From Candidatus Helarchaeota ASGARD archaeon Hel_GB_B (GTDB lineage Archaea; Asgardarchaeota; Lokiarchaeia; Helarchaeales; HEL-GB-B): a DNA stretch of 28,908 nt. Positions 6,666 to 26,978 of this stretch are shown here, one piece after another. Location: positions 1 to 28,908 of the forward strand of contig SUPR01000040.1 in the NCBI GenBank assembly GCA_005191425.1, written 5' to 3'. Every line of letters starts with the position of its first letter. Within the stretch, counting starts at the first letter, position 1. Both the position numbers and the translations under genes were made by a program. Under the pieces are notes generated by a model. That model was not told where the DNA came from. It saw only the letters and a list, made by a program, of their open reading frames with translations, and did not search any database.

Positions 6666-7739
6666 TTATAATTTCAATTTTTCTTTTACCTTGTCGGAGA
6701 TTTCTTTAATAATGTCATTAGAATAATCTTCGATTCTACCTTCATCAGTAAAAGTAGAGATTTTTGGATCTAAAGGTATTTTTCCCAGAAAATTTAGGTT
6801 GTATAGTTCAGCTACTTTGGCCCCTTGGGGTGGTCCGTAAAGTTCAATTTCTTTATTACAATATGGGCATACAAGATGGCTCATATTTTCCACAAGCCCG
6901 AATATTGGGACGTTCATGATTTTAGCCATATTAATTCCTTTTTCTACGATCATTGCAGCAAGATCTTGTGGTGTAGACACAAAAATTATACCATCAACTG
7001 GATACGATTGATATATAGTTAAATGAGTGTCTGAAGTTCCGGGTGGGAGGTCTAAGACTAAAATATCAAGAGGACCCCAATCTACTCGTTCGTAGAATTC
7101 TTGTAGAATTTTGTTAATGAGCGGTCCACGCCAAAGGACAGGGTTGGTTTCTTCAGGTAATAATAAGTTCATAGAAATAATTTTAATTCCATTTTTACTT
7201 TGGACAGGAATAATTTTATCGGCAATAACAATAGGCCGCTCTCTGAGGCCAAAAAATTTAGCTATTGAAGATCCAGTGATATCTGCATCAAGGATTCCAA
7301 CGCTCATACCACTTCTTCTTAAATATGAAGCTAGAATTGAGGAAACAAAAGATTTACCTACACCGCCTTTTCCAGAGGTAACAACGATAATATTTTTAAG
7401 TTGTTGTTTACCGAATTTTGGTATCATACTAGCAGAAATCTTTTTTTCTTCTTCAGGAGTTAGTTTTTTCATAAATTCATTGTGCTCTTGTGGTGTCATT
7501 TTAACAAAGTTCACTTCTACATCGTCCAAATTTAATTTATCTTTAAGATAAAGAATTGTGTGTGCTTTGATATCTTCATTGGACTGGTAATCAAGAGCAA
7601 GTGTTTTAAAAGTAATTTTTATCTTTTTATCGTCAATTATTTCTAAATTTTTAACTAAATCTAAATCTGCTAGACTTTTATTAAGTCCTGGAAACATTAC
7701 ATTTTTTAATGTAGTAATTACTTCAGTTTTATTTACCAT
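6666..7739 (-). CDS. mrp: Mrp/NBP35 (ApbC) Fe-S cluster carrier ATPase with N-terminal DUF59-like domain
   Basis: Deviant Walker A SGKGGVGKS, LDADITGSS, LWRGP, DLPPGTSD, VSTPQ and ENMSHLVCPYC. The N-terminal LKNVMFPGLNKSLADLDLV is typical of DUF59. Confidence 0.93.
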   Translation of the reverse strand: MVNKTEVITTLKNVMFPGLNKSLADLDLVKNLEIIDDKKIKITFKTLALDYQSNEDIKAHTILYLKDKLNLDDVEVNFVKMTPQEHNEFMKKLTPEEEKKISASMIPKFGKQQLKNIIVVTSGKGGVGKSFVSSILASYLRRSGMSVGILDADITGSSIAKFFGLRERPIVIADKIIPVQSKNGIKIISMNLLLPEETNPVLWRGPLINKILQEFYERVDWGPLDILVLDLPPGTSDTHLTIYQSYPVDGIIFVSTPQDLAAMIVEKGINMAKIMNVPIFGLVENMSHLVCPYCNKEIELYGPPQGAKVAELYNLNFLGKIPLDPKISTFTDEGRIEDYSNDIIKEISDKVKEKLKL

Positions 7740-7918: not shown

Positions 7919-9934
7919 ATGATTTATAAGAATTATAGAGATTTAGTTTTCCGGGTGGATGAAGAAATAAAAAAGAGAAAGGACAAAAAAATTAGAAAAA
8001 AAGCTTTAGAAATAATTCGATGCCGTCAAAATGAATTAAAAAAAGAAATGGATATAGAGAAATTAAAAGAGGAATATATTCGAATAAAAAGTTATAGTTT
8101 AAAAAATATGAACAAGTTAAAGGAACAAGCCAAGAAAAGATTAAAAGAAAATGGATGTAAAGTTTACGAAGTTAGAAATTCAAATAAAGTAATATCAATT
8201 ATTAATGAAATATTGAAGGACACAATTTTAGTTAAAAGTAAGACAAATGTGTCTAAAGAGATAAATCTTGTAAAGAAACTTGAAAAACAAGAGATAAATA
8301 TAATAGAAACAGATCTAGGTGATAGACTGATACAATTAGCTAATAAGCCGGCTGCACATCCAATATTACCAAGTTTATCAATTTCAAAAGAAGAGGCATA
8401 TCGATTATTAACAAAAAAAGAGACACCTTTAGATACGGAAATATCTATTGAAAAAACAATTAAAATTGCGCGCGAAGGTCTAAAAGAGCAAATTTTAAAA
8501 GCAAAAGTCGCGTTGACAGGAGCTAATGTTATAACCACAGAAGAGGGGTTTATCGGATTGGTAGAAAATGAGGGAAACCAAAGGTTGATTACAAGTCTAT
8601 CTGAAAAACACATTATATTAACTACTATTGATAAAATAGTCCCAACAGCTCAAGATGCAATAATTATAATGAAAGCTTCATCATATTTTGGATTAGGAGT
8701 TAGAAATGCAGGATATTTTTCATTTATAGCCGGCCCAAGTAGAACTGGGGATATTGAGTCAACAATTTGCTATGGAATGCATGGACCTACTGAGGTACAT
8801 GTTATTTTTGTTGATAATAATCGTAATAAAATATTGAATACAGAATTTAATGAAATTTTAAAATGTTGTTCGTGTGGTGGATGCGTAAATTATTGTCCTA
8901 TATTTGAAGAAATTGGCAGTAATTCATTTGGAAACTTTTTTGCAGGTGGAAGAGGAATTTTATTAGAATTTATGACAAATGGAATTGAAGAGGCTTTTAA
9001 TTGTGGACTAAATTTATGTCTTACATGTAAAGCTTGCACATTATCTTGTCCAGCAGAGATGGAGATTTCTAATTTAATAATTAAAGCACGAGAATTTGCT
9101 GTCAAAAAGAATTTGATAATCCCGAAGCACAATGAAATTCTAAACTCAATTCGCAATTACAATAATCCGTTTAATGAGCCAAGATCAGATCGAATAAATT
9201 GGCTTAAAGGAAATAAAGGTAATCTTAAATTAAATAAGAATAAGGCAAAAACACTCTTATTTATTGGATGTATGAGCTCATATAGAGTACAAAACCAAGC
9301 AATATCTACTTGGAAACTTTTGAAGGAATTAAATATTGCGTTTGAGTATTTAGGAGAAAATGAGCCTTGCTGCGGTGGAATACTTTATAGGTTAGGTTTT
9401 AAAGAAGAGTTTAATAAAATAATGCATAATAATATTAAAATACTTGAGAAATATGACCAAATTATATTATTATGTCCTGGATGTTATTCTACATTTAAAA
9501 ATTTTTATAAAAATAAATTGGAACATGTTAATATCAAGCATATTATAGAAATTTTAAGGGACTATCCATTATTAAATAAGTTCCGAACTAATAAAGTTGT
9601 ATCATATCATGATCCATGTCATTTATCAAGAGAATTATCAATAATAGACCCGCCAAGAATTGTATTAAATCAAATTGCCAATTTTAAAGAATTAAGTGCA
9701 GACCCAAAAATGTCCAAATGTTGCGGAGCTGGAGGGGGTGTATTATCGGCATTCCCCGAATTATCTAAAAGCATAGCATCAGATAGACTCAAGGATATTG
9801 CGAAAATTAAAAATTTAGAATATTTATTGACTACTTGTCCTTTTTGTGAATATAATCTTAATTTAGGTAATCAAATTGAAAAAATTCCAATAAAAATACA
9901 GTCAATTCAAGAATTCATTATTAAAAAGAAGTAA
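7919..9934 (+). CDS. LUD-domain (LutB/LldF-like) Fe-S protein fused to 4Fe-4S and CCG domains; putative lactate/2-hydroxy-acid oxidation subunit
   Basis: LUD motifs ETDLGDRLIQL, LVENEGN and FIAGPSRTGDIE...GMHGP; ferredoxin motifs CCSCGGCVNYCP and CLTCKACTLSCP; CCG motifs FIGC...CCGG, YHDPCHL, CCGAGGG and TCPFC. Confidence 0.9.
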   Translation: MIYKNYRDLVFRVDEEIKKRKDKKIRKKALEIIRCRQNELKKEMDIEKLKEEYIRIKSYSLKNMNKLKEQAKKRLKENGCKVYEVRNSNKVISIINEILKDTILVKSKTNVSKEINLVKKLEKQEINIIETDLGDRLIQLANKPAAHPILPSLSISKEEAYRLLTKKETPLDTEISIEKTIKIAREGLKEQILKAKVALTGANVITTEEGFIGLVENEGNQRLITSLSEKHIILTTIDKIVPTAQDAIIIMKASSYFGLGVRNAGYFSFIAGPSRTGDIESTICYGMHGPTEVHVIFVDNNRNKILNTEFNEILKCCSCGGCVNYCPIFEEIGSNSFGNFFAGGRGILLEFMTNGIEEAFNCGLNLCLTCKACTLSCPAEMEISNLIIKAREFAVKKNLIIPKHNEILNSIRNYNNPFNEPRSDRINWLKGNKGNLKLNKNKAKTLLFIGCMSSYRVQNQAISTWKLLKELNIAFEYLGENEPCCGGILYRLGFKEEFNKIMHNNIKILEKYDQIILLCPGCYSTFKNFYKNKLEHVNIKHIIEILRDYPLLNKFRTNKVVSYHDPCHLSRELSIIDPPRIVLNQIANFKELSADPKMSKCCGAGGGVLSAFPELSKSIASDRLKDIAKIKNLEYLLTTCPFCEYNLNLGNQIEKIPIKIQSIQEFIIKKK

Positions 9935-12790: not shown

Positions 12791-13153
12791 TTATATTTCA
12801 TTTTTTTCTTTATCAGGGTCATCAATTGATTCGATAACAATTCTTAAACCCAAAAAGAGGGCACGAACTATTTTTTCTCTGCCGCTCTTTAGTAATCGCC
12901 AAATTGTACCCCTAGAAATTGCCATTTTTTCGCCAGCTTCAATTTGTGTCAAATTTTGACAATCAACTAGACGTAAAGCTTCAAGTTCATCAGGATATAA
13001 CACAATTTGTCCATTTTCTATTAAATTATACTCATTGTCATAAGGTGCAAAATAAGAGGGAACAGGTTTTTTATTAATAATTCTATAAAAATGAGGCCTA
13101 CCAGGGCCCGTCTTCCTTTTTCCACGCCATCTTCGGCCATGAAATCCACACAT
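12791..13153 (-). CDS. DUF134 (UPF0251) family predicted DNA-binding protein
   Basis: GRP...P...F.P...LYPDELEALRLVDCQNLTQIEAGEKMAISRGTIWRLLKSGREKIVRAL is the DUF134 signature. Confidence 0.9.
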   Translation of the reverse strand: MCGFHGRRWRGKRKTGPGRPHFYRIINKKPVPSYFAPYDNEYNLIENGQIVLYPDELEALRLVDCQNLTQIEAGEKMAISRGTIWRLLKSGREKIVRALFLGLRIVIESIDDPDKEKNEI

Positions 13154-13198
13154 TTTAATTACACATTTTTTTTATTTTAATCTATATAAAAATAAAAT

Positions 13199-14104
13199 TT
13201 AATTCATAATAAATTTTTGGATTTTATTAAAGATATCGCGATACGCTTTAACGGCAATAGAATCAGGGGCGTATTCTATAACAGATAGACCTTCAGCTAC
13301 AGCATAAGCAATTGAATTATCAAGTGGTATATTTCCTAGATGAAAAAGATTATTTTGTTCAAGAAATTCAATAATTTTATTTGTGCTTTCGGGGAATAAG
13401 TCAGCTTTATTGATTATTACGCCAATATGTTTAGTAAAATTATATGCCAATTGTAAGACTCTTTTTAGATCGTGGACTGCAGCAGGGTTTGGTTCGGTTA
13501 ATAAAATTATATAATCAGAATCAGTTAGAGATGCAATTACAGGACACCCTACACCAGGTGGGCCATCACTTAATAGGATATCAGGCAAAGTAGACTCTTG
13601 TTTGGCTATATTATTAGCCCACATTTTTGCTTCAGCTACTATTTTTCCGCTATTACCTTCCCCAATTTTTATTTTACCAGTTATTACAGTAAAACCATAT
13701 TTGGAGTGTTGCTTTAATAAATCACCGGTTTTAATGGGTCTGAGTTCTATACAGTTTTCAGGGCAAACGATTTCACAAACTCCGCACCCTTCGCAGAATA
13801 GATCTGAAAAAATTGGATGTTTATTATCTGCATCCCATTTGATTGCGTTAGACGGGCATTTTTCATAACATGTTTTACAACCAATACAACAATCATTGTT
13901 TGATAGAAATGCTTTTTCAGCTGAAAAAATGTCTTTTGTTTCTAGTTCTTCGCATTTTAGTACAATAGCTAAATTAGGAGCATCAACATCACAATCGACT
14001 AATATTATATCTTTACCTGCCTCTTTGAATAAAAGGGCCAGTGTAGCAGTTGTGGTAGTTTTCCCAACTCCACCTTTTCCACTTGCAATTGTAATTTTTT
14101 TCAT
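13199..14104 (-). CDS. MinD-superfamily P-loop ATPase with inserted 2x[4Fe-4S] ferredoxin domain
   Basis: SGKGGVGKTT, DCDVDAPNL, CIGCKTCYEKCP, CEGCGVCEIVCP, DGPPGVGCPV and TEP. Overlaps the upstream paralog by 4 bp (ATGA). Confidence 0.93.
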   Translation of the reverse strand: MKKITIASGKGGVGKTTTTATLALLFKEAGKDIILVDCDVDAPNLAIVLKCEELETKDIFSAEKAFLSNNDCCIGCKTCYEKCPSNAIKWDADNKHPIFSDLFCEGCGVCEIVCPENCIELRPIKTGDLLKQHSKYGFTVITGKIKIGEGNSGKIVAEAKMWANNIAKQESTLPDILLSDGPPGVGCPVIASLTDSDYIILLTEPNPAAVHDLKRVLQLAYNFTKHIGVIINKADLFPESTNKIIEFLEQNNLFHLGNIPLDNSIAYAVAEGLSVIEYAPDSIAVKAYRDIFNKIQKFIMN

Positions 14105-15036
14105 TCTTTTTTTAACTCCCCTTTTAATTTATTGAAAATTTGAATATAAGATTTTGACCCTACTGAATCTGGAAATTCTTCTATTACAGGTACTCCTTTT
14201 GCATATGCAACTTGAATGCTTTTATCTAATGGTATTTGCCCGATTATTGGGACTGAATATTCTTCACTTAATTTTTCAATTAAATCATGTCTATTAGTCA
14301 TATCTGAGCGGTTTAGAATAATATACGATTTAATAGGATAATCAATTACTTTTACAAGTTCTAAAATTCTTTTTAAATCAAACATGCCATAAAGCGTTGG
14401 CTCTGTGACATATAAAACAATTTTTGATCCAAAAAGAGAATAAAATACATCGCAATGTGCTCCAGGTGCTGTATCAATTATGATGCTATCGTAATTATTT
14501 TCTTTAATTTTTTTAAGAGCATATATTTTTTCTTGTTTAACTATTTCAGATGAATTTGGTTCTCCAACTTTTAATCTACCAACTATAATATCTATTCCAT
14601 AATTAGACCCTTCAAGTAATGCTCCAATTTCCTTAAAACCTGAATCGATGGCACCTACAGGGCAAATAATTTGACATGCTGCACAGCCCTCGCAGATTTC
14701 AGGAAATAATAGAGGCTTTTTGTCAGGGATATGTAAAATTGCATGGGGTTTACAAACATCATGACATTTTTTACATGAAATACATTTATCGTTAAATTCT
14801 GGAACAAAGATATTAATTTTCTTAATTTCTTTTAATTCAATGTTCATTAGAATTGAAACATTTGGATTATCAACATCACAATCTATAATTAAAACTTTTT
14901 TTCCTAATTTACTTAACATGTATGCTATATTTACAGCAACAGTTGTTTTTCCAGTGCCACCTTTTCCGCCAGTACACCCAATTATGTCTTTATCTAATTC
15001 AAAAAATTCAAACCAATCTACTCTTTCATCTACCAT
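14101..15036 (-). CDS. MinD-superfamily P-loop ATPase with inserted 2x[4Fe-4S] ferredoxin domain (second paralog)
   Basis: GGKGGTGKTT, DCDVDNPNV, CISCKKCHDVC, CEGCAACQIICP, DTAPGAHC and VTEPT. Confidence 0.93.
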   Translation of the reverse strand: MVDERVDWFEFFELDKDIIGCTGGKGGTGKTTVAVNIAYMLSKLGKKVLIIDCDVDNPNVSILMNIELKEIKKINIFVPEFNDKCISCKKCHDVCKPHAILHIPDKKPLLFPEICEGCAACQIICPVGAIDSGFKEIGALLEGSNYGIDIIVGRLKVGEPNSSEIVKQEKIYALKKIKENNYDSIIIDTAPGAHCDVFYSLFGSKIVLYVTEPTLYGMFDLKRILELVKVIDYPIKSYIILNRSDMTNRHDLIEKLSEEYSVPIIGQIPLDKSIQVAYAKGVPVIEEFPDSVGSKSYIQIFNKLKGELKKE

Positions 15037-15153
15037 AAGTAATACCCATAAAATATATTAAAAAAATATGAATTAAGTTCTTGTACAAATTTTTAGAATT
15101 ATTTATTAAAATTATTTAAATTTTATTATTGATATTTTTTAGAACTACTTTAA

Positions 15154-15645
15154 TTACCATCTTCTACCGCCGCCCATTCCTCTGCCGCCACCCATTCCTC
15201 TGCCGCCACCCATTCCTCTGCCACCGCCCATTCCTCTGCCACCGCCCATTCCTCCGCCCATCCCGTAATGAGAGCTAACCGTAGAAGAACTAACTTGATT
15301 TAATGTACCTGAAAGATATTTTTTAACAGCTTCTTCAACTGTTATTCCCGATAGTCCAGAATAAATCTCAATATTTAGACTATTTAATGCATAAAATGCA
15401 TTAGGACCAACATTACCTGTAAGTATTACATTTGCACCATAATCACCGACTATTTGAGCGGCTTGAATTCCAGCGCCTCCAGAAGCCATTTTGGATGCAT
15501 TATCAACGACTTTTATGTCTGCAATTTTACCATTGACAACTTTAACAAAAGTAAAAAATGCACAACGTCCAAATCTTGGATCAATCATAGCGTTCAATCC
15601 ATTATTATTTTGTGAACTAACCGCTATTATAACATTTTTGGCCAT
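15154..15645 (-). CDS. NifB/NifX (dinitrogenase FeMo-cofactor-binding-like) family protein with Gly/Arg/Met-rich tail
   Basis: IAVSS...IDPRFGRCAFF...GGAGIQAAQ...VILTGNVGPNAFYAL is the family signature. AAGGTG RBS at 15653-15658. Confidence 0.92.
   Translation of the reverse strand: MAKNVIIAVSSQNNNGLNAMIDPRFGRCAFFTFVKVVNGKIADIKVVDNASKMASGGAGIQAAQIVGDYGANVILTGNVGPNAFYALNSLNIEIYSGLSGITVEEAVKKYLSGTLNQVSSSTVSSHYGMGGGMGGGRGMGGGRGMGGGRGMGGGRGMGGGRRW
15166..15255 (-). repeat. Five tandem 18-bp units encoding (R/G)GMGGG
   Basis: Units start at 15166, 15184, 15202, 15220 and 15238; plus-strand consensus gcc(g/a)cc(a/g)cccattcctct. GC-rich against the AT-rich background. Confidence 0.95.
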
Positions 15646-15647
15646 AT

Positions 15648-16097
15648 TTAACCACCTTTCTTTTTATAATTTTTAATTTTTTTCTTAATTTCTTTAATTT
15701 GATTTTTTAATTCTTCAATATCCTCTTTTTTGGATAAATGATCATCTCCACCAATATAAGCTCCGCATTCGCTACAATAATAAGAATTTGGATATAAACT
15801 AGCGCCACAATTATGACAGAACTTAACTTCGCTTTTTTCCTTTTTGTATAATGGTTCAGTAGTATTTTGTTTTGAATTTTTCTGTATTTTTTGAATCTCT
15901 GAAAAATTTACAATTTTATTATCGCTATTTCTTTTATAAAATGCATTAGGGCCATATCCACACCTGCATGGTCCGACATAAGAATATCCTCGAATAGTTC
16001 TTTTAGTATTGTAAGTAAAATTATTAAATCTACTATTAGTCAAATTATTATTACTGTTATTGTTGAAATATCTCCATCTACAATATCTATTTCTCAT
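15648..16097 (-). CDS. DUF5320-like protein with double zinc ribbon and C-terminal coiled coil
   Basis: YVGPCRCGYGPNAFY motif, CHNC...CSEC zinc ribbon, and coiled coil EELKNQIKEIKKKI. Stop is 2 bp from the nifX-like start. Confidence 0.75.
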   Translation of the reverse strand: MRNRYCRWRYFNNNSNNNLTNSRFNNFTYNTKRTIRGYSYVGPCRCGYGPNAFYKRNSDNKIVNFSEIQKIQKNSKQNTTEPLYKKEKSEVKFCHNCGASLYPNSYYCSECGAYIGGDDHLSKKEDIEELKNQIKEIKKKIKNYKKKGG

Positions 16098-16586: not shown

Positions 16587-16754
16587 TTATAGCCAGATCA
16601 ATGTATCAATTAATTCGTTTAGAATTTCAAAAGTTTCCTTTATATGTTGCTTTGGTACGATGTTTTCGACATTATTTACAAATAAATCTACAAATTCAGA
16701 TAATTTAAATCTAAATTTTGCTATTTCCAGGGTTTTTTTAATAATATAAGACAT
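16587..16754 (-). CDS. Small 55-aa helical protein, last gene of the lipid-type operon
   Basis: AGGTG at 16763-16767 sits 8 nt before ATG 16754 and overlaps the activase stop. Protein: MSYIIKKTLEIAKFRFKLSEFVDLFVNNVENIVPKQHIKETFEILNELIDTLIWL. The track start (16778) is probably too long. Confidence 0.6.
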   Translation of the reverse strand: MSYIIKKTLEIAKFRFKLSEFVDLFVNNVENIVPKQHIKETFEILNELIDTLIWL

Positions 16755-16765
16755 TTTCTTATCAC

Positions 16766-17767
16766 CTATAATGTCCATTTACCGCATCTATCGCCCCATC
16801 TGGCTATAATTGTCCCGTCATCTTGTTCTACATATGTAATTTCACATTGATTTGGGCAGTCGGTACAATTAAAAGCTTTTGGAGTGAATTTCATCTCACC
16901 CACATTAAAACCTTTAAATTTAGTTTTAATGTTATTTATCTCAATATATTCCCGAGCTAGCATTGCAGCGCCAATTGCGCCCATAGTGAGGAAATTCTTA
17001 TGTACTATAATTTTTTGTCCTAAATGTTTTTCAAATGCACGTCTGATTCCATCATTTGCAGCGACTCCTCCTTGAAATGTAATTGGGGGCAATAATTTTT
17101 TACCTTTACAAACATTATTTAAATAATTTCTTACCAAACTATTACATAGCCCCCAAATTATATCTTCTTTACTGTGGCCCATTTGTTGTTTATGAATCAT
17201 ATCGCTTTCAGCAAATACAGTACACCTACCAGCGATTACAACATCAGTTTTAGATCGTTTTGCATAATCGCCAAATTCTTCAATTGGAATTCCCAAACGG
17301 TGAGCTTGATGGTCTAAAAAAGACCCAGTTCCAGCTGCACAAATAGAATTCATTGCAAAATCAGTAATAATGCCATTTTCTAATAAAATCACTTTAGAGT
17401 CTTGACCACCAATTTCTAAAATTGTCCTGACACCAGGGACAAAATATGAGGCAGCAACTGCATGAGCAATTATTTCTGTCTTAGCAATATCGCCACCGAC
17501 TAAAGCTTTAGTAAGGTATCGAGCAGATCCAGTAGTTCCAACTGCACGTATTTGGGACTCATAATCTATGAAATCGTTCTGCATTTCTTTAAATCCATCT
17601 TGTACCGATTTGATAGGTGAGCCATGAGACCTGGCCCAAGTGCTATATATTAATTCCATATTGTCATTTATAATAGCAAATTTAGTCGATACACTACCTA
17701 CATCAATACCTAAATATAAATTATCATTTTTATCAATTTCAGCTTCTCTATTTTCTGCCATTACCAT
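16766..17767 (-). CDS. ATP-dependent CoA-enzyme activase (HgdC/BadG-type, BcrAD_BadFG family) with PlsA-type Cys-rich C-terminal extension
   Basis: YLGIDVGSVSTK, GTTGSAR, EIGGQDSK, MNSICAAGTGSFLD, AGRCTVFAESD and FQGGVAAN, plus the tail FNCTDCPNQC...WGDRC. Confidence 0.93.
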   Translation of the reverse strand: MVMAENREAEIDKNDNLYLGIDVGSVSTKFAIINDNMELIYSTWARSHGSPIKSVQDGFKEMQNDFIDYESQIRAVGTTGSARYLTKALVGGDIAKTEIIAHAVAASYFVPGVRTILEIGGQDSKVILLENGIITDFAMNSICAAGTGSFLDHQAHRLGIPIEEFGDYAKRSKTDVVIAGRCTVFAESDMIHKQQMGHSKEDIIWGLCNSLVRNYLNNVCKGKKLLPPITFQGGVAANDGIRRAFEKHLGQKIIVHKNFLTMGAIGAAMLAREYIEINNIKTKFKGFNVGEMKFTPKAFNCTDCPNQCEITYVEQDDGTIIARWGDRCGKWTL

Positions 17768-18875
17768 TGTTTTTTTTCTCCTTTTTATTTTTTAGAAGAT
17801 CAACATAACTTTCTAATCTTGTTATAAGTCCGGCTTCTCCAGAATGCTCATCAAAACCAAAAAATATTGGAGGGATATCAAAATATTTATTGCCGTACCA
17901 TTTTGTCAGAATAGACTTTGCAGTAATTTCTGGCATACATGTGAATGGATATATATGTACAAAGCCATCAAAACCTCTTTGTGCATAATCAATATATTCG
18001 CCCATAACCCAGAATGCTTCGCCACCAATATCCATCTGGAGACCGCCTATATTTTTTTGAGATTTATTTAAATATTCTAAATATTTTCGATGAAAATTAA
18101 CATGAAATTTATGTTTAATCCAATCATATAAACTAAGATTCATATGAACTTCACACCCCAATTCGCCCAATTTTCTTTTTATATCATGATTTACAAAAGG
18201 ATCAAGGGTTACTTGAATCTCACCACTTAAACCGACCTTTAAAATTTCATTATTATCCCGTTTATTAATTTCAATTTTATCAAATTCGTTTTTAATTCTT
18301 TTTCGGAGTTTATTTAATTCGTTAAAAGTATTTGCATCATCAATTAATTGAATACATTTATTGAGAGTGTGTGTAGTATCACCTTTATTGACCTCATAGC
18401 ACCTGATTTTTCCCTCTAATTTTTCCACGGTTTGAATTAATTGAGATTTCATTAGAAATAATCTAGCTGTACGAAAAATTCTAAAATAATTTAATAAAGA
18501 TTTGTCTTCAGATAATGCTTTTAATAATTTAATCCATTTAAAATCAAGTAAATCTCCTTGGGGTAAGTAATACATTTTAAAATCATAGCCTAGATCTCTT
18601 AAAATGCGTTCTTGGACGGCATAATAAAAGCCAAACCGACAAGGGCCACAATCAGTTGCCATAACTAGATTATCTACGCCCTCATCAAGGGCTTCAATAA
18701 AATTCGATAAAGTAACTTTGAAAGGAAAACAGACCCATTCTGGACTATGTTTTAGTCCTGCATCTAATTGTTTTACATTATTAGGATCAGGGAGGTAGAC
18801 TTCAGCACCAACTCCTGTGCATAGAACTTTAAAGGCAGGCCAGCAATTGCCCATATGAGGAAATGTAACCTTCAA
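17748..18875 (-). CDS. 2-hydroxyacyl-CoA dehydratase/reductase-like subunit (COG3581-type; PlsR-like reduction/dehydration domain)
   Basis: PEWVCFPFKVTL, TDCGPCRFGFY, PFTCMPE and FDEHSGEAGLITRLESYVD. TTG start with AGGTG 7 nt upstream; 4-bp overlap with the upstream gene. Confidence 0.88.
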   Translation of the reverse strand: MKVTFPHMGNCWPAFKVLCTGVGAEVYLPDPNNVKQLDAGLKHSPEWVCFPFKVTLSNFIEALDEGVDNLVMATDCGPCRFGFYYAVQERILRDLGYDFKMYYLPQGDLLDFKWIKLLKALSEDKSLLNYFRIFRTARLFLMKSQLIQTVEKLEGKIRCYEVNKGDTTHTLNKCIQLIDDANTFNELNKLRKRIKNEFDKIEINKRDNNEILKVGLSGEIQVTLDPFVNHDIKRKLGELGCEVHMNLSLYDWIKHKFHVNFHRKYLEYLNKSQKNIGGLQMDIGGEAFWVMGEYIDYAQRGFDGFVHIYPFTCMPEITAKSILTKWYGNKYFDIPPIFFGFDEHSGEAGLITRLESYVDLLKNKKEKKNNGNGRK

Positions 18876-19942
18876 AATTCAGCACCTACCTCTTTTTCTG
18901 ATTTATTTATTATTCCAATAGGCATAGTAGGTTTTTTATATATAATTCGGATATTGTTTTTCTTACGAACAATCATATCAACAAAAGCTTCGACTCGAGT
19001 AATTACACCAGCTTGACCGCTATGTTCGTCTAATACAAGCCCGATATAAGGGATTTTCAATTTTTTTGCATCGCGGGCCATGATCTCGTCAATTAACGAG
19101 TCGGGTCCACAACAAAATGAGCAAATAAAAATAATACCATCAATATCTTTTGTTTCAAATAGATAATTAACTGCGGATAATATCTCTTCCTCGTTTCCCC
19201 AATAATTCTCGAGTGTATTTGTAATAACAGTTTGATTCTTAAATATTTCAAGTGGTAAATTTTCAAGAGTTACAACATTGACCTTCATTTTATTAAGTTT
19301 ATTAATTAAGTTCATATTTATAAAAGAATCATGTACATTATAACCATGACCTATTATAGCAATTTTAGCGACATAATCGATTATTTTCTTTTTAGGTTTA
19401 AAATTTCTATTTTTGCTATTTAATACGTTTAAAGCTTTTTTAAAAGAAAGACCATCCACCATTAGTTGTCTGAAATATTTGTAGTCTTTAATAGCTTTTT
19501 CATATGCTTTTTTGATTTGCCAAGTTGATTTATGAAGTACTTTTCCTAACTTATAAGCCGATAAATACATAGGTCTTTTTTGCATATTGACTTCAAATTC
19601 GATTATTGGAGGTAAATTGTCGATGGTACCCCGTACCATATCGGGAAGGCCCAGAAATTTAGGACAAAAATAAGTGCCAATAGTTGTTGAAACATATCGT
19701 GGAACAAATAGATAGTCAATATTTTTTTCCAATAGATTCAATACATGTCCATAGTAAAGTTTTAAAGGTATACAGATTTCATCAATAGCATAGCGTCCAC
19801 CAATATCGATTATTTTGCTATTTGTTCTATCGCTGAGAACAATTTCAACCCCTAATTCTTCCAAAAATGTTTTCCAGAGAGGAAAATATTTATAATATAA
19901 TAAACTTCTTGGAATTCCAATTCTCTTTTTAATTACTATCAC
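18872..19942 (-). CDS. DUF2229-domain acyl-CoA dehydratase/activase-related subunit (COG3580-type)
   Basis: IGIPRSLLYYKYFPLWKTFLEELG, DEICIPLKLYYGH, YFCPKFLGLPD, SFCCGPDSL and LDEHSGQAGVITRVEAFVDM. Confidence 0.9.
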   Translation of the reverse strand: MIVIKKRIGIPRSLLYYKYFPLWKTFLEELGVEIVLSDRTNSKIIDIGGRYAIDEICIPLKLYYGHVLNLLEKNIDYLFVPRYVSTTIGTYFCPKFLGLPDMVRGTIDNLPPIIEFEVNMQKRPMYLSAYKLGKVLHKSTWQIKKAYEKAIKDYKYFRQLMVDGLSFKKALNVLNSKNRNFKPKKKIIDYVAKIAIIGHGYNVHDSFINMNLINKLNKMKVNVVTLENLPLEIFKNQTVITNTLENYWGNEEEILSAVNYLFETKDIDGIIFICSFCCGPDSLIDEIMARDAKKLKIPYIGLVLDEHSGQAGVITRVEAFVDMIVRKKNNIRIIYKKPTMPIGIINKSEKEVGAEF

Positions 19943-19953
19943 CTAAAATTAAT

Positions 19954-21426
19954 TCAGTCTGTGATCAATTTTGGTTTATCTCTAAAATCGTTAGTTAAAA
20001 TATCCTCTACGATTTTCTTGGAAGAATCATAGTAAAATTCTATGATATCATTAATGCGTCCAAGAACAAGGTTTAAGGGGATCAAAGGAATTTTTAAAAT
20101 ATTAGTAACTCTTGGAAATCTGACGGTCTCTATATTTAAGTCTTTAAGAGCTAATTCAATTCCTTCTAATATGGTAGAAGCAAATTCATCTGGAGTCTTA
20201 TTCTGTAGAGAATATTTAATATCGTCAGGGATAATACGATCAAAAATATTCAAAAAAGAATTTTTTAAGCGTATTTTTGATTCTATTGGATATGAATTCA
20301 TGTAGAGAAATGTAAACAATGAATAGTTTAATTGAAATGATGTCTTTAATATTTTGTTTTCGGCAATTTTTTTCAATAAATTGTTAGACCTTTCATTTAC
20401 AAAATGAATGATTATTAATCCAAGGCATTTAAGTAGGTCATTTTCTCGTCTATTGCTAAAAATCTCTAATTCTTCTTTTAGTTCGATTTCTCCATCGGTA
20501 TAAAGGTTAATCACGTCACGAAGTAGAGCTCCAATGAAACCAAGAGGGTCACGGACTATTTTTTTAACTTGATGTGATTCTAGTTTTTTGGGGAATGCTT
20601 TTTTCAGGAGTGAAATCCAATCGAAATCTACATGGACTATTTTTTTAATCCTTTCTTCTATTTTTAAGTAAATTTCATAATCTTTTTCAATGTTAGCATG
20701 AATTTCAGGTAGATTAAATACAGCAGATAAATCGGTAATATGATTACAAATTATATTGGGTCTTTCTGCGTTTAAAATTTCAGTAGAGATAAGGCCATTT
20801 GCTATTGCAATAGTATTAACATTAGCTTGCTTTGCAGCTAAAATATCAGTAAGTAGATCTCCAACGTAAATTACCTCTTTTGGGTCGTATTTTAGATCTC
20901 TAATTGCTTTTAAAATTGCTTCGGGACTTTTTGGTTTATCAATTTCGTCATTAGTTATGACAGATTTGAAATATATATCTAATTTAAATCTTTTTAGCAT
21001 TTCAATTATTTCGTCTTTTTTCTCACTAGTTAATAATGCAAGGTCAAATTTCTCGGCCAACATTGCAATTATTTGATCTGCACCACTAAAAAGTTGAGAA
21101 ACATTATTGTAACGTTTATAATTTATGTATAATTTTAGGATTAACTTTAGTTTGTCAATATAATGAAGCCCATCCATAAATTCAATTCCGTCTGATAAAG
21201 TATATGCATTTAATATAATATTTGGCATATCAGAAGAATCAATTCCCTCAATAATACTCAGTGCTTGTTCAACAGCATCATCAAGAGGATAGTTAATGTT
21301 ATATTCAGTCAGTACATCTTTAATTGCAGCTTTAATTGCAGCTGTATTATTATATAAAGTTCCATTCCAATCAAATACTATAGCTTTAGTATTTTCTAAT
21401 TTCATATTTTTTGCTAAAATTGCCAT
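19954..21426 (-). CDS. HAD-superfamily phosphatase (N-terminal ~235 aa) fused to an uncharacterised helical C-terminal domain
   Basis: Motif I VFDWNGTL (DxN variant), motif II LLTS, motif III KPKSP, motif IV YVGDLLTDILAA. AAGGTG RBS at 21435-21440. Confidence 0.88.
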   Translation of the reverse strand: MAILAKNMKLENTKAIVFDWNGTLYNNTAAIKAAIKDVLTEYNINYPLDDAVEQALSIIEGIDSSDMPNIILNAYTLSDGIEFMDGLHYIDKLKLILKLYINYKRYNNVSQLFSGADQIIAMLAEKFDLALLTSEKKDEIIEMLKRFKLDIYFKSVITNDEIDKPKSPEAILKAIRDLKYDPKEVIYVGDLLTDILAAKQANVNTIAIANGLISTEILNAERPNIICNHITDLSAVFNLPEIHANIEKDYEIYLKIEERIKKIVHVDFDWISLLKKAFPKKLESHQVKKIVRDPLGFIGALLRDVINLYTDGEIELKEELEIFSNRRENDLLKCLGLIIIHFVNERSNNLLKKIAENKILKTSFQLNYSLFTFLYMNSYPIESKIRLKNSFLNIFDRIIPDDIKYSLQNKTPDEFASTILEGIELALKDLNIETVRFPRVTNILKIPLIPLNLVLGRINDIIEFYYDSSKKIVEDILTNDFRDKPKLITD

Positions 21427-21478
21427 TTTATATTCACCTTAATTGTTTTTTCAAATATATTTATTTAAATTAATTACA

Positions 21479-22861
21479 TTATGAATTATCATCAATATTA
21501 TTATTGTAGAATATAGCTAATTTGCTTCCTTTATCACAAACATAGATCTGCGCGTTAGGGTCATTTTTAACCCAATTATCAATTACCTTTTGTGGGTCAT
21601 TTATAGAAATTAAATGGATTTGTTCCACGATTTCAGAATTTAGGCTTGATTTAATCCAGATTTTAACTTTTTTTAATAATTTTGCAAATTTAAATGCTTT
21701 ATGACTGTAAAGTACATATTTATTTTCAATTGTCTTTAATACTTTATCAAGAGGCTCAGATAATGCATTATAAAAAAATTCTTTTGCTTTTTCATTAGGG
21801 GCAATTCCATTTCCAACTCCGCAATTGGCTAGGAATAAAATTTCACCCCCATCTTTAACAGCATTTTTAGTTAATTCAAGAGCCCTTTGAGAATCATATA
21901 AACTTCCATCGAATGGATATCCACCAGCTGAGACAATTAAATAATCAGCTTTTTTATTAATAGTAAAAGCTGCTATTTCATCTACTTTTTTTAGCCCATT
22001 ACTGGTAACTATATCGAAATCACCAGCTTCAGCCCAAAAAATTGCATTTTTTAAAGTTATCATATTTAATGTATAAGTCTCGGCATTTTTCGTAATTAAT
22101 CGCATGGCTTCTAACATGTCTTCGGCTACAGGTTGACTCTTCCTTGACGGGTCAGGGTGCAATGGATGCCTTAAGAAAGTAGATTTGTCTTTTAATGCTA
22201 ATGAATGATTTTGTTCTACAGTATCGTATGCACAAATTCCTGGGAGAAAGTTTTTAATTGGGTTACTATATCCTGCAAAATAATGAGTTTTTAGATCAGA
22301 AATTGTAAAATAAACATCACAACCATGCGCTTTTTTATTGATAATTACATCAGTACCAAATGAAGTTTTCCCTAGGTTAATAAATTCGTGGTTAAAGCAA
22401 TCATGGATAATGATTTCATAATTTTCAATTCCATTATTATGAATAGAAGATTTTAAAGCCTCGGCAATTTCTTTATTTTCTTCAGTATAGGGGTTGTGAG
22501 AACCAGTAGTGATTATGAAACATAACTTTTTTGCTGGTTTTAGATATGGCATGGTAACTTTAACAACTATTTTTTGAGAAGAAGCTCTTGTACCGTCTTC
22601 TATCAAAATGCAGACTTTTTTATTATCGACCACATCGTCCAATTTTTTACCAATTGGATTTTCAAGTGCATTTATTAAAGCTCCTTCTATATCAGTATTA
22701 ATTTTATTTTTGCTTATTGGAGTAAAAAAACCTAGAAAATTTCTTTTTGGAATATTTAAATCTATTTTATCCTTACCATAACCAACTTCACAAGATATCA
22801 TATTCATTTTCTGCTGAATACTTTTATTACTATTATTAATTTCAGTCATTATTATTAACAT
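21479..22861 (-). CDS. larA: LarA-family nickel-pincer-dependent alpha-hydroxy-acid racemase/epimerase
   Basis: EDGTR, TGSH, LGKTSFGTDVIINK, THYFAGYSNPIK, EQNH, SAGGYPFD and HKAFK match the LarA motif order. The substrate cannot be inferred, and the start may be a downstream Met (e.g. 22849). Confidence 0.85.
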   Translation of the reverse strand: MLIIMTEINNSNKSIQQKMNMISCEVGYGKDKIDLNIPKRNFLGFFTPISKNKINTDIEGALINALENPIGKKLDDVVDNKKVCILIEDGTRASSQKIVVKVTMPYLKPAKKLCFIITTGSHNPYTEENKEIAEALKSSIHNNGIENYEIIIHDCFNHEFINLGKTSFGTDVIINKKAHGCDVYFTISDLKTHYFAGYSNPIKNFLPGICAYDTVEQNHSLALKDKSTFLRHPLHPDPSRKSQPVAEDMLEAMRLITKNAETYTLNMITLKNAIFWAEAGDFDIVTSNGLKKVDEIAAFTINKKADYLIVSAGGYPFDGSLYDSQRALELTKNAVKDGGEILFLANCGVGNGIAPNEKAKEFFYNALSEPLDKVLKTIENKYVLYSHKAFKFAKLLKKVKIWIKSSLNSEIVEQIHLISINDPQKVIDNWVKNDPNAQIYVCDKGSKLAIFYNNNIDDNS

Positions 22862-25492
22862 CTATAAATATCTATCAGTATAAGTTTTTGCTTTCAGTTC
22901 TTTGAGTTGTGAATAAATTTCCTCGGCTAATTTGTATCTGGCATCTCTTTTCATTCTTTTAATTGGAATTGGTCTTCCTATTTCAACATTAATTTGGACT
23001 GGTGGAAAAGGAGTTTCTGTACCACCAATATGCATCGGAATTATAACAGTAGGTTTTCCTTCAATTGCTAATTTTACAATTCCTGCAATAGTACGGACAA
23101 TTTTTTCGGGATTTTTTGTCTGTATAAAAGCGCCGACCATTTTTTTATTTTTGAGCTTCTGTTTCAATTCTAATAATGGTTCAAAATCTTCCTGAGACTC
23201 AGTTTTTCTAAAAAAACCTAATGACTTCAAAATGGTCGAAACAATGGGTGTTTTATAAGTCTTAGCATCAATCATAAAATGTACTTGCTCTGGAACTATA
23301 CAATTTCCAATTACAAAATCCAAATTACTTGTACTAACCCCTAAAAATATTATGCCAGTCTGTTTATCCGAGGGAATATTTTCCTTACCATATATTCGGA
23401 AATCATATATGTTATTTACTAGTAATTCACAGGTATTTTTGGCAATTTTATAGAAAAATTTATCAAATGTTTGAGTTATGTCATACTTTTCTCCTATAGA
23501 CCTAATTCGGTTCAAAAATTTGTCGATTGGACTTAACTTAACAAATTCTTTCTTTTCTATTTTATTAATACTTGTAATACCCAATTTATTAGTTAAATTG
23601 TTAATGACATTTTCAAAAGGTAATTTATAATCACTATCTTGTAGTTGTCTGGCTGGTAATCTTATTAATTGACCAAATAACTTTATTATCTTGTCAATTG
23701 GCGATTCTACATCACTCAATAATTCAGGATCTGTCTGATTTAAATCTTCTTCATGTAATTCTTTTATCTTTCTCATTAAATCTTTTGTTAACCCCTTTAA
23801 TAAATCACGAGTTAAAATAGCATCATAATACTCATCATAATAAATAGGCTCACCAATATTAAGTTGTAATTGAAATCCTTTAGGAGGTATCATTACTTTT
23901 AAAATACCTTTCTGCATAGCATCATAAGAACCATTAATAGCCATTGGAATAATTGGCATACGGGTTTCAATTGCCATCCTAATAACGCCTGTTTTACCCT
24001 CATTTATATCGATATCTTTAAATGTTGTTTGTTGTGGAAAAATAACAACTCTCCTTCCTTTCAAAACAAGTGCCTTGGCAATTTCTAATGCATGAGTATC
24101 GTGAGCACCTCTTGCAACTGGAAATCCCCCTGCAGAAAGTGTCCAGCTTGAAATTATAGACAATTCTGCAAGTTCTTTTTTCATCATGAACCAAGTTTTT
24201 GTAGTAATATCATGTAATTTTCCTGGAATCAAATAACCCCAATAATCAATCATTGGTTTTGGAACCAATTTTAACCCATAGAAAAAAATATCAAAAAACG
24301 ATTCATGATTAGAAGCTATAATTGCTCCTTTAAATTGGTCTAAATTCTCTTTACCTTTTACTTTAAAATCAAAAGTTAATGGATTTACTAAGAAATTAGC
24401 ACTTAACCTAATAAAAAAATGACTAAAAGCATCCAAATAGTCTCCTATAACAGGAATTCTCGATGTATATTTGACATATTTTCTGTACAACATATCAAAA
24501 GGATTTTTTGGCTTTTTTTCTAAGGTTTCAAATTTATTAACGACAATTTCATTTATTGGTTTTTTTAACGATTCATTAAACCGTTTTTCTTTAATTTCGT
24601 GGATTTTACGCCTGCTATTCTCTTTTAATTGTTCGATTCTGGCCATTAAATCGCCAATTAAGCGGCGTAAATCTTCGTAACTTAATTCTTTATCATAATA
24701 ATCCTCATAATAAATAGGTTCTCCCATACTACAATACCAAATACCCTTTTTACTCGGAATAAAACTTCCACCAGTTAATTCATATAGTCCACTATGCCCA
24801 ATTGGGACTATTGGAACTTTATTTTCTATAGCAAGTCTAATAACGCCTGATTTTGCCTTCTGTTGTTTTTCAATATTGCGTGTCCCTTCAGGATATATTA
24901 AGATATTAGAACCTCTTTTTAAGAATGTCGACCCGATTTCCATAGACCGTCTCGCTTTACTACTAATCTCCCGTTCGACAGGAAATGCAGTTGAGCTAAA
25001 AATAGTCCCAAGTAATGGATAATTAAATAATTGGTATTTAGCATAAAAAATAGGGACATTCTTTTTATTTACTATACCTTTAAAATTATATCTTTTTAGA
25101 AAAACAAATGGATAATTTAAATCTCGTAATTCACAACATGCTCTTGCTAAATATAGGTGTTCTGCTTCCGTTTCATGATTAGCCGCAAAAATTACTGGTT
25201 TCGTTTTAAATATATTTTCTCTCCCTTCATATATCGTTTCTACCTTTCTATCAAATATTTTCAATATAGTCTCAAGAATCGAAAGAGATATAAAATCGAT
25301 TGCGGTATCAAATACAGGAATTTTACTTTCATAAGCTTTACGTTTAATCCATCGAATAGCTTTATCGACTATATTATTTGAAATACCCTCAATTTGTTCT
25401 AATTCGTCTAAAATTATATTGGAATTATGTTTATAATTAATATCACCGTCATCTGCAAAAAATTCTTCAATTGCGGTCAACTTTTTAAACAC
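22862..25492 (-). CDS. plsC: Glycerolipid (PlsC/LPLAT-family) acyltransferase with three tandem acyltransferase domains, 876 aa
   Basis: Three repeats of the fold. D1: FAANHETEAE / FPVER / IYPEGTR / SGVIRLA / PIVPIG. D2: IASNHESFFD / FPVAR / IFPQQT / TGVIRMA / PIIPMA. D3: GVSTSNLD / GFFRK / AFIQT / AGIVKLA / IIPMHI. Start is GTG 25492 or TTG 25480. Confidence 0.9.
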   Translation of the reverse strand: MFKKLTAIEEFFADDGDINYKHNSNIILDELEQIEGISNNIVDKAIRWIKRKAYESKIPVFDTAIDFISLSILETILKIFDRKVETIYEGRENIFKTKPVIFAANHETEAEHLYLARACCELRDLNYPFVFLKRYNFKGIVNKKNVPIFYAKYQLFNYPLLGTIFSSTAFPVEREISSKARRSMEIGSTFLKRGSNILIYPEGTRNIEKQQKAKSGVIRLAIENKVPIVPIGHSGLYELTGGSFIPSKKGIWYCSMGEPIYYEDYYDKELSYEDLRRLIGDLMARIEQLKENSRRKIHEIKEKRFNESLKKPINEIVVNKFETLEKKPKNPFDMLYRKYVKYTSRIPVIGDYLDAFSHFFIRLSANFLVNPLTFDFKVKGKENLDQFKGAIIASNHESFFDIFFYGLKLVPKPMIDYWGYLIPGKLHDITTKTWFMMKKELAELSIISSWTLSAGGFPVARGAHDTHALEIAKALVLKGRRVVIFPQQTTFKDIDINEGKTGVIRMAIETRMPIIPMAINGSYDAMQKGILKVMIPPKGFQLQLNIGEPIYYDEYYDAILTRDLLKGLTKDLMRKIKELHEEDLNQTDPELLSDVESPIDKIIKLFGQLIRLPARQLQDSDYKLPFENVINNLTNKLGITSINKIEKKEFVKLSPIDKFLNRIRSIGEKYDITQTFDKFFYKIAKNTCELLVNNIYDFRIYGKENIPSDKQTGIIFLGVSTSNLDFVIGNCIVPEQVHFMIDAKTYKTPIVSTILKSLGFFRKTESQEDFEPLLELKQKLKNKKMVGAFIQTKNPEKIVRTIAGIVKLAIEGKPTVIIPMHIGGTETPFPPVQINVEIGRPIPIKRMKRDARYKLAEEIYSQLKELKAKTYTDRYL

Positions 25493-26297: not shown

Positions 26298-26978
26298 GTG
26301 AGTTATTTGTCAAAAAAATCAGAAACAGAATTTAAAATTTTAAATGTATTAGAAGAAGAAGATTTAGGATTAACAATATCAGAAATTGCAGAGAGGATAG
26401 GAGTAAATAGGAATACAACTGCAAAATATTTAGAATCAATGGCTGAGAGAGACTTGATTTATAAAATAGAGAAGGGGCCCACTTCAAAATTATTCTATCC
26501 TATCCGTGTCCATAAGAAATTTTCAGATAGAGCAGATTATATGGTGAAATTTTATCAATTATTACATGAGGCATTATTTTTTAATTGGATGAAGAATGTT
26601 AAAAAAGCAAAAGAAATTGGCTACGAAATGGCAAAAGAAGCTACTAAAATTTATAAAAAACAATTTGAGAGAGTTGATATGACTTTCGAAAATATTACTA
26701 GATTAGCTGCTCTTGCTGTAGAAATAACATACCCAACTCCTAATGTACAAGCCAAAGTATATCTAACAGATGATAAAAATAGCTTTTTTTTGGAAATTAA
26801 AAATTGTATTTGTGATGGAAAAGTAAAGTATAGGTCAATTTGTGAAATTCAAATTGGTCTCCTTAAAGGAATAATTGATGAGTTTATAAAACCCGAAAGC
26901 GTCCAAGTTGAAGAAGTAGAATGTCGTTGTGATGGCTATAATTCTTGTAAATATAAAATTACAAGAGAAATTAAATAA
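26298..26978 (+). CDS. HTH + V4R (4-vinyl reductase) domain transcriptional regulator
   Basis: HTH GLTISEIAERIGVNRNTTAKYLESM; V4R-type LEIKNCIC...CEIQIGLLKGII...VEEVECRCDGYNSCKY. Confidence 0.9.
   Translation: MSYLSKKSETEFKILNVLEEEDLGLTISEIAERIGVNRNTTAKYLESMAERDLIYKIEKGPTSKLFYPIRVHKKFSDRADYMVKFYQLLHEALFFNWMKNVKKAKEIGYEMAKEATKIYKKQFERVDMTFENITRLAALAVEITYPTPNVQAKVYLTDDKNSFFLEIKNCICDGKVKYRSICEIQIGLLKGIIDEFIKPESVQVEEVECRCDGYNSCKYKITREIK

Follow-up and report, generated by a model that had tools for sequence, protein, structure and literature searches.

A split PlsA-like reductase trio beside a PlsC-type acyltransferase in Helarchaeales: a candidate for non-isoprenoid lipid chemistry in Asgard archaea

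The window analysed here is a stretch of 28,908 nucleotides (nt) from Candidatus Helarchaeota archaeon Hel_GB_B (contig SUPR01000040.1, positions 1 to 28,908 of the forward strand; assembly GCA_005191425.1). It carries an operon of seven genes in which a PlsC-type acyltransferase (A1) stands together with a three-gene reductase (A4, A5 and A6). Judged by sequence, the reductase trio belongs, as a split form with a single activase, to the DUF2229 (PlsA/PlsR/Ger) branch within the ATP-dependent radical-enzyme superfamily; it is not an HgdAB-type dehydratase. PlsA/PlsR and Ger convert bacterial ester lipids to ether lipids. By analogy, the operon is tentatively read as making an acyl ester and then an ether (probability about 0.4), and it is a conserved, testable candidate for non-isoprenoid lipid chemistry among the archaeal relatives of eukaryotes. 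Eukaryotic lipids are esters of the bacterial type, whereas isoprenoid ethers are assumed for the archaeal ancestors; how the one gave way to the other is an open question. The genes of the operon, in the order of transcription, and the regulator upstream of it are as follows (lengths in amino acids, aa).

22862..25492, minus strand: A1, triple PlsC/LPLAT-type acyltransferase, 876 aa (PF01553 three times, TIGR00530)
21479..22861, minus strand: A2, paralogue of the LarA-family nickel-pincer (NPN) racemases/epimerases, 460 aa (Lar_N and LarA_C)
19954..21426, minus strand: A3, HAD-IA domain with a helical C-terminal region, 490 aa (HAD_2)
18872..19942, minus strand: A4, 'Red1' subunit, DUF2229 with HGD-D tail, 356 aa (PF09989)
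17748..18875, minus strand: A5, 'Red2' subunit, counterpart of PlsR, 375 aa (hhalign, weak DUF2229 match)
16766..17767, minus strand: A6, single HgdC/BcrAD-type ATPase activase, 333 aa (PF01869, TIGR00241)
16587..16754, minus strand: A7, conserved 55-aa protein (orthologues in Helarchaeales copies of the operon)
26298..26978, plus strand: divergent HTH-V4R regulator (HTH_IclR, HTH_24 and V4R matches)

The trio is best understood against the large fused proteins of the same branch. In Asgard archaea these are 1389-1454 aa long and consist of two activase domains, a DUF2229 domain and an HGD-D tail (B-B-D-H), followed by a further ~430 aa. Ger has the same architecture, and Prometheoarchaeum syntrophicum has been listed among the carriers of a Ger homologue (Sahonero-Canavesi et al., 2022). 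One fused protein, P0284, and no other was found in the P. syntrophicum genome. For an Asgard fused protein, the best 120 of the listed relatives belong to Asgard archaea or uncultured bacteria.

A4 matches PF09989 (DUF2229) with an E-value of 1e-54 over positions 1-217 of 218, and the same unit of DUF2229 with HGD-D tail lies at residues ~650-950 of the fused B-B-D-H proteins. Cys57, Cys93, Cys278, Asp305 and His307 of A4 are invariant across all split and fused sequences examined; the three cysteines fit three ligands of a predicted [4Fe-4S] cluster. A5 matches the N-terminal part of DUF2229 weakly (E 5e-9) and has conserved cysteines at positions 49, 76, 79 and 313. A4 and A5 are distant paralogues of each other (hhalign 99.6%). 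Over its full length, the A5 family aligns with the C-terminal 400-480 aa of the fused proteins (hhalign 96.9%, E 1.9e-10, 339 columns), with three cysteine positions in register, while A4 reaches only 17% against that region. A6 matches PF01869 (BcrAD_BadFG; E 3e-49) and TIGR00241 (E 2e-60). It has the two bridging-cluster cysteines, Cys143 and Cys182, and an additional conserved C-terminal tail of the form CxxCxxxC...C (Cys301, 304, 308 and 328). A6 aligns with the second activase domain (Act2) of the fused B-B-D-H proteins, the Cys4 tail included, and the bacterial split activases have this tail as well. From these alignments, A4, A5 and A6 are assigned part for part to the Red1, Red2 (PlsR) and Act modules of the PlsA/PlsR/Ger family.

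Structure prediction gives A4 (predicted local distance difference test, pLDDT, 91.8) the fold of HadC, HgdB, BcrC and DCCP, with a template-modelling (TM) score of about 0.55. The best Foldseek matches include 3o3n_B (E 8e-10, TM 0.56), DCCP (6eno) and BzdO (8s02_B), and FldC, HadC, HgdB and BcrC in Swiss-Prot. Thus, the catalytic fold is shared with the dehydratases, benzoyl-CoA reductases and DCCP (HgdAB/HgdC, HadBC/HadI, FldBC, LcdAB, BcrBC, BzdNO), with TM 0.50-0.57 and Foldseek E 1e-9 to 1e-10, and so is the general logic of an ATP-driven activase that feeds an electron to an iron-sulfur core made of two different subunits. The trio differs from all these systems in several respects. Identity is only 11-18%, the sequence matches of A4 to the solved dehydratases are not significant (E 0.02-0.12; HadC/HgdB in the PDB, E 0.12), and its PF06050 (HGD-D) match is confined to profile positions 266-342 of 342, that is, the last 77 (E 6e-7). 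A6 bears the extra Cys4 tail, and no CoA-transferase gene adjoins the trio.

A4 and A5 are predicted to form a heterodimer with an ipSAE interface score of 0.78 against 0.00 for the best control; the mark used is reached by 58 of 80 solved complexes and by 2 of 110 mismatched pairs. The runs agree in at least 97% of the contacts, the partner pLDDT is at least 86, and the conserved cysteines of both proteins sit at the predicted interface. The score may partly reflect the likeness to the solved HadBC and Bcr pairs. Judged by sequence, profiles and fold, A6 is the ATP-driven, electron-injecting activase, and A4 with A5 the heterodimeric iron-sulfur catalytic core.

The trio thus has the same set of modules as PlsA/PlsR (Clostridium perfringens, with single-gene forms in facultative anaerobes) and Ger (Thermotoga maritima, Desulfatibacillum alkenivorans): a BcrAD_BadFG activase with Cys4 tail, a unit of DUF2229 with HGD-D tail and a second, PlsR-like unit. 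The cluster-ligand cysteines and the Asp..His pair are invariant in split and fused forms alike, and the trio is, by analogy, probably likewise oxygen-sensitive and ATP-dependent. Unlike those enzymes, it is made up of three separate genes in the order Red1-Red2-Act, it has one activase on a gene of its own (A6) instead of tandem activase domains within the reductase chain, and it is coupled to its own acyltransferase.

The split and fused forms also differ in sequence. Identity between A4 and the DUF2229 (Red1) unit of the fused proteins is 24-27% (BLASTP). In a maximum-likelihood tree of Red1 units, from which the named C. perfringens PlsA/PlsR and T. maritima Ger were missing, the fused proteins form a clan of their own (Shimodaira-Hasegawa-like approximate likelihood ratio test, SH-aLRT, 100; branch 2.5), and A4 of the window falls in a separate Asgard clan (SH-aLRT 100) among the split forms. 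Five positions beside the cluster cysteines divide the two forms cleanly in the alignment (A4 numbering):

Position 61: K in split forms, Q in fused forms
Position 82: R in split forms, H in fused forms
Position 95: K in split forms, I/V in fused forms
Position 199: H in split forms, R in fused forms
Position 306: E in split forms, A in fused forms

By clan placement and by the five residue differences, the trio and the fused Ger-type enzymes are not orthologues, and the substrate of the trio may differ as well. A preliminary description of this DNA, made from the letters alone, had expected the reductase subunits to group with PlsA and Ger and not with the 2-hydroxyacyl-CoA dehydratases. The assignment to the DUF2229 branch holds by sequence, and the grouping with Ger does not, as A4 lies outside the fused Ger-type clade. 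The split branch is large. A search of all representative proteins gave 519 clusters (50% identity) at E <=1e-30. The best 150 of them are stand-alone proteins of ~330 aa or Red1-Red2 fusions of ~730 aa; none is 1400 aa long. The branch is widespread in anaerobic Bacillota.

In A1, PF01553 is matched in three stretches (E 3e-45), and TIGR00530 scores 137.7 bits (NCBIfam). Domain 1 has an HX4E motif (HETEAE) and an intact PEGTR; domain 2 has the canonical HX4D (HESFFD), its motif III being FPQQTT; domain 3 is without the catalytic His. No single domain combines the canonical HX4D with (F/Y)PEGTR, as seen in the sequence and the alignment. The acyltransferase of Lokiarchaeales has two domains, each with HX4D and PEGT intact, and a form with three domains was found in Helarchaeota-type archaea alone. 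The only sequence match of A1 in the PDB is the bacterial PlsC of T. maritima (5KYM), with which it shares PF01553/TIGR00530, the HX4D of domain 2 and the PEGTR of domain 1; it differs in having three domains in one soluble-looking chain of 876 aa, with the motifs divided among them. No strongly hydrophobic, transmembrane-like segment was found in A1. By sequence and profile, it is a predicted soluble multi-domain PlsC-type O-acyltransferase. The three domains are the sole PF01553 matches in the source genome, and at least 13 genes of the acyl-CoA-synthetase type in this genome could supply acyl donors.

The reductase and the acyltransferase are conserved together. A4 was found in 40 of the 41 Lokiarchaeia genomes sampled. 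The gene neighbourhoods were surveyed at 18 loci from the sampled Lokiarchaeia genomes and at 80 named loci from species-representative genomes. At 28 Asgard loci, each from a species-level genome and together covering at least five families, the gene immediately upstream of A4 encodes two or three PF01553 domains and, as a rule, follows the HAD gene. This adjacency persists despite rearrangement of the other genes. The Asgard-labelled loci without an upstream PF01553 gene are those where the contig begins inside the HAD gene or where A4 stands alone without other parts of the cluster. In the cultured P. syntrophicum MK-D1, a PF01553 gene (E 1e-28) directly precedes A4-A5-A6, and a second trio lies elsewhere in the genome. 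A Woesearchaeote has the order PF01553-A4-A6-A5. Thus, the earlier expectation that the acyltransferase would be conserved next to the reductase in archaeal relatives proved right. One Bathyarchaeota-labelled locus has no PF01553 gene in the 2.5 kb upstream. The Asgard family f8 carries one or two trios per genome without an adjoining PlsC, and no PF01553 match was obtained in five f8 genomes, each ~88% complete.

In bacteria the picture is different. At about 47 bacterial A4-A5-A6 loci (Bacillota, Actinomycetota, Deltaproteobacteria, Sumerlaeota), a PF01553 gene is absent up to a distance of 7 kb. A trio usually joined to an acyltransferase in archaea and standing without PlsC in bacteria agrees with a substrate that is at hand in bacteria and has to be produced by archaea themselves; this contrast supports the reading in which A1 would make the ester for the trio. 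The gene neighbourhoods of the bacterial and f8 trios themselves gave no clue to the substrate. In 10-13 spore-forming Bacillota (loci L093-L135, e.g. L096, 2865-10076), the split trio follows directly after spoVAC/spoVAD/spoVAEB and a GerA-like gene, with dacF-spoIIAA-spoIIAB-sigF upstream and a lysA-like decarboxylase gene downstream. This sporulation-gene setting suggests a role in the forespore. Other bacterial trios lie beside rpsB-tsf. The closest relatives of A4 outside Helarchaeales (59-60% identity) come from two metagenome-assembled genomes labelled 'bacterium' (L059 and L060). Their contigs have bacterial-looking genes, including one for an outer-membrane Alginate_exp protein, no acyltransferase, and a B12-binding radical-SAM gene beside A4; these copies may reflect a transfer between domains. 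In Lokiarchaeales, the clusters include additional, paralogous reductase sets; one of them (L023, G022:C38, 74000-93999) holds three sets within 15 kb. The first has A4. The second has a 977-aa activase-activase-DUF2229 (B-B-D) protein followed by an unassigned 469-aa protein, and the third has an 837-aa fusion of FAD_binding_4 with DUF2229 followed by A6 and two A5 paralogues.

The source organism belongs to Helarchaeales within the Lokiarchaeia of the Asgard archaea, and its genome of 3.5 Mb is 94% complete. The Asgard origin of the contig, considered likely in the preliminary description, is confirmed by relatives of the same order and by the nearest named protein homologues, which are all from Helarchaeota. 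The open reading frame (ORF) listing likewise agrees with that description in giving seven co-directional minus-strand ORFs (16587-25492), spaced along A1 to A6 by gaps of 0, 52 and 11 nt and then by overlaps of 4 and 20 nt. The Pfam and NCBIfam searches returned the domain content proposed for them. Read from its first ATG, the last ORF (16587-16778) encodes 63 aa and overlaps A6 by 13 nt; read from an internal ATG at 16754, it encodes 55 aa and leaves a gap of 11 nt. The 55-aa version, also the one chosen initially, is preferred because the orthologues align from residue 9 onward only and one of them is itself 55 aa long. The arrangement is not due to chance, since the gene order repeats in the related Helarchaeales genomes checked and the core HAD-PlsC-A4...A5-A6 is found across Lokiarchaeia.

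The Helarchaeales form of the cluster is marked by the C-terminal extension of the HAD protein, the 55-aa gene after the activase, the divergent HTH-V4R regulator, the third, His-less acyltransferase domain with HX4E in domain 1 and FPQQTT in domain 2, and, in three genomes only, the LarA insertion. A7 has orthologues (40-80% identity) immediately behind A6 in six Helarchaeales loci, and these were found only in Helarchaeales copies of the operon; A7 has no Pfam or NCBIfam family match. Orthologues of the HTH-V4R regulator (60-78% identity) are divergent upstream of PlsC in four genomes (G001, G002, G004 and G005). A search of sequencing runs revealed the operon DNA in hydrothermal-vent and marine-sediment metagenomes as well; no RNA dataset containing the operon was listed among these runs.

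In the mechanism favoured here, A1 would draw on acyl-CoA to form an O-acyl ester, with glycerol or glycerol phosphate as the backbone. Such an ester would otherwise be lacking in archaeal membranes. Once activated by A6, the A4/A5 core would reduce this ester in the manner of the bacterial PlsA/PlsR and Ger, and an alkenyl or alkyl ether would result, probably at the primary position. A2, A3 and A7 may be accessories of particular lineages, with a part in trimming or epimerising some small precursor that is hydroxylated or phosphorylated.

A number of observations weigh against this ester-to-ether scheme. A1 has HX4E in domain 1, a degenerate motif III in domain 2 and no catalytic His in domain 3. 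PlsY was not found in the source genome, nor did any match to NAD_Gly3P_dh_N (GpsA-type) there pass the cut-off of the family. The HAD protein belongs to the IA type with small substrates, and its motif I reads DxN in the source genome. A4 lies outside the clan of the fused Ger-type proteins, in a tree built without the named bacterial enzymes, and the residue differences beside the cluster cysteines could mean a different, more anionic substrate. The f8 trios stand alone, with no PF01553 gene found in the f8 genomes searched. Strain MK-D1 carries the PlsC-trio cluster, yet its lipid analysis gave isoprenoid chains only: after ether cleavage, phytane and biphytanes were the sole products from the co-culture (Imachi et al., 2020). 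The 1419-aa fused Ger-type homologue of this organism (CP042905.2, 3828900-3845159) is flanked by genes for thiolase, acyl-CoA dehydrogenase, MaoC dehydratase and two CoA-transferase subunits, which is an acyl-CoA (beta-oxidation-type) context and not one of lipid synthesis.

The order of the two reactions could also be reversed. A4/A5/A6 would then modify a soluble acyl-CoA or hydroxyacid-derived substrate, for example by dehydrating or reducing a hydroxyacyl-thioester, and A1 would transfer the resulting acyl group to an acceptor, with LarA supplying the 2-hydroxyacid in the right enantiomer. The fold of A4, nearest to the beta subunits of 2-hydroxyacyl-CoA dehydratases and benzoyl-CoA reductases, points in this direction, as do the Lys and Arg residues beside the cluster cysteines of split forms, where the fused lipid-type enzymes have neutral or hydrophobic ones. 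So do the dedicated LarA paralogue with intact catalytic residues in the operon of three genomes, the trios of archaea in which no PF01553 gene was found, the surroundings of the P. syntrophicum fused homologue and a LUD-CCG (lactate-utilisation-type) gene in the window (7919-9934). However, the subunits are of the DUF2229 type, with PF06050 and PDB matches as limited as described above, the operon includes no gene for a CoA-transferase or acyl-CoA ligase, and most copies of the cluster, including all those of Lokiarchaeales, are without LarA. On balance, the reversed order is considered rather unlikely. If the enzyme did act on a soluble substrate, it would define the function of the large split branch with its 519 clusters.

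Another explanation would have the cluster remodel or detoxify foreign ester lipids of bacterial or eukaryotic origin, taken from the sediment or from syntrophic partners, by re-acylating lyso-lipids and turning esters into ethers, with no part in the bulk membrane of the cell itself. The source genome has no detected PlsY, no GpsA-type match above cut-off and no further PF01553 gene, and therefore no complete de novo pathway of the bacterial type. Re-acylation of lyso-lipids is common among PlsC/LPLAT enzymes, a ligand-sensing HTH-V4R regulator is kept beside the operon in Helarchaeales, and the bulk lipids of MK-D1 were reported as isoprenoid only. The occurrence of A4 in nearly all Lokiarchaeia genomes sampled nevertheless suggests a core and not an opportunistic role, and the conserved cluster has no transporter or lipase gene; the explanation appears improbable. 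Still harder to credit is a general low-potential reductase for some unrelated small molecule, similar to DCCP, whose adjacency to the acyltransferase would be a matter of co-regulation. DCCP structures are among the best fold matches of A4, and the bacterial trios lie in unrelated contexts, after spoVA or beside rpsB-tsf. Against this stand the adjacency in 28 species-level Asgard genomes and the Woesearchaeote, which outlasts rearrangement, the tight spacing or overlap of the genes, and the fact that the acyltransferase of the source genome exists in the operon alone.

Replacement of a missing geranylgeranylglyceryl phosphate synthase (GGGPS) by the cluster was also considered and is ruled out as a general explanation, as the two distributions are not complementary. 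In the Lokiarchaeales family f4, GGGPS is present in 27 of 28 genomes and A4 in 27 of 28; the Helarchaeales families f2 and f3 have GGGPS. No above-cut-off match to GGGPS (PF01884) was obtained in the source genome (G000) or in G001 of the same genus, both ~93% complete. The MK-D1-like family f5 is also without the enzyme, and GGGPS has been reported as missing in MK-D1 itself (Imachi et al., 2020).

A2 is an accessory in this operon. It matches Lar_N (E 9e-37) and LarA_C (E 8e-10) in Pfam and aligns with the malate racemase Mar2 (6d6z, E 2e-37). His122, His193, Lys203 and His219 of A2 correspond to His108, His171, Lys181 and His197 of Mar2; we take these to be the catalytic His pair, the NPN-tethering Lys and the Ni-ligand His, as in Lactiplantibacillus plantarum LarA. 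The D89-x-T91-R92 motif is kept as well, and LarC is present in the source genome. A2 therefore shares both domains, the His/His/Lys/His set and DxTR with LarA and Mar2. It differs in falling below every NCBIfam LarA equivalog cut-off (best 248 bits against a cut-off of 500) and in being a paralogue found inside the operon only. Its orthologues (>=60% identity) occur in just three genomes (G000, G001 and G005), always between PlsC and HAD, so that LarA is ruled out as a core member of the operon and counts as an accessory insertion.

A2 could act on a 2-hydroxyacid; a speculative alternative is the C2 hydroxyl of the glycerol backbone. In the boldest version of the lipid scheme, the operon would be a self-contained route to non-isoprenoid ether lipids, in which A2 inverts the C2 hydroxyl of glycerol phosphate or a lyso-lipid via a C2 keto intermediate (dihydroxyacetone phosphate in the case of glycerol phosphate). 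Backbones of the glycerol 3-phosphate and glycerol 1-phosphate types would thereby be interconverted, and ether lipids of either stereochemistry could be made. This idea is highly improbable; if true, backbone inversion by a LarA protein would put fatty-acid-derived ether lipids across both halves of the 'lipid divide'. In genome G038, a LarA paralogue lies 3.7 kb from the fused protein, among sugar-acid genes. The LUD-CCG gene of the window (7919-9934, plus strand) encodes a protein of 671 aa in which a LUD domain is joined to a 4Fe-4S dicluster and two CCG domains (LutB/LutA-like), is adjoined by an Mrp/NBP35 iron-sulfur carrier gene (6666-7739), and may bear on hydroxyacid metabolism alongside the LarA genes.

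The HAD domain of A3 covers aa 1-240 (HAD_2, E 8e-26, residues 16-208). In NCBIfam it comes closest to PpaX and phosphoglycolate phosphatase, without reaching any cut-off. Motif I, at residues 19-23 (D-W-N-G-T, within FDWNGT), has Asn at the Asp+2 position and thus departs from DxDx(T/V); the Asp+2 residue of HAD motif I is the general acid/base. Most orthologues have FDWDGT or FDFDGT, including that of the same-genus genome, and the Asn is shared by G002. With DxN in the window and in G002 and DxD in the same-genus genome and most others, the Asp+2 must have been replaced at least twice within the order. The dephosphorylation step of the preliminary description is therefore weakened, A3 being a HAD-IA protein of the small-substrate type with its catalytic Asp+2 changed to Asn. 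The C-terminal region (aa 245-490) is helical and specific to Helarchaeales. These ~250 aa gave no match in Pfam, NCBIfam or the Atlas feature search, and a single-sequence fold of this half was unusable (pLDDT 37).

Earlier publications have reported PlsC homologues from Lokiarchaeota and fused homologues of Ger from Asgard archaea. In full-text literature searches, no description of the split trio or of its coupling to an acyltransferase was found. The Helarchaeales architecture, the residue signature dividing split from fused forms, the Asgard family with trios and no PF01553 gene, and the rejection of the GGGPS replacement are new. As the cluster is present in the cultured P. syntrophicum, the question of acyl-derived ester or ether lipids in Asgard archaea is directly testable.

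Rfam and tRNA scans of the window gave no match. On the 3' side of the operon, a co-directional set of genes (12791-15645, minus strand) encodes a DUF134 regulator, two MinD/ParA-type ATPases with 4Fe-4S ferredoxin inserts and a NifX/NifB-like (Nitro_FeMo-Co) protein, and a gene for a Zn-ribbon protein (15648-16097) lies between this set and the operon. The Zn-ribbon and NifX-like genes are found downstream of the operon in the same-genus genome too; they were not found beside it in the other relatives checked. Farther away, an NMO/FabK-like FMN oxidoreductase gene (1875-2984, minus strand; PF03060, E 3e-33) lies in a stretch with 38% G+C, compared with ~28% in the rest of the window.

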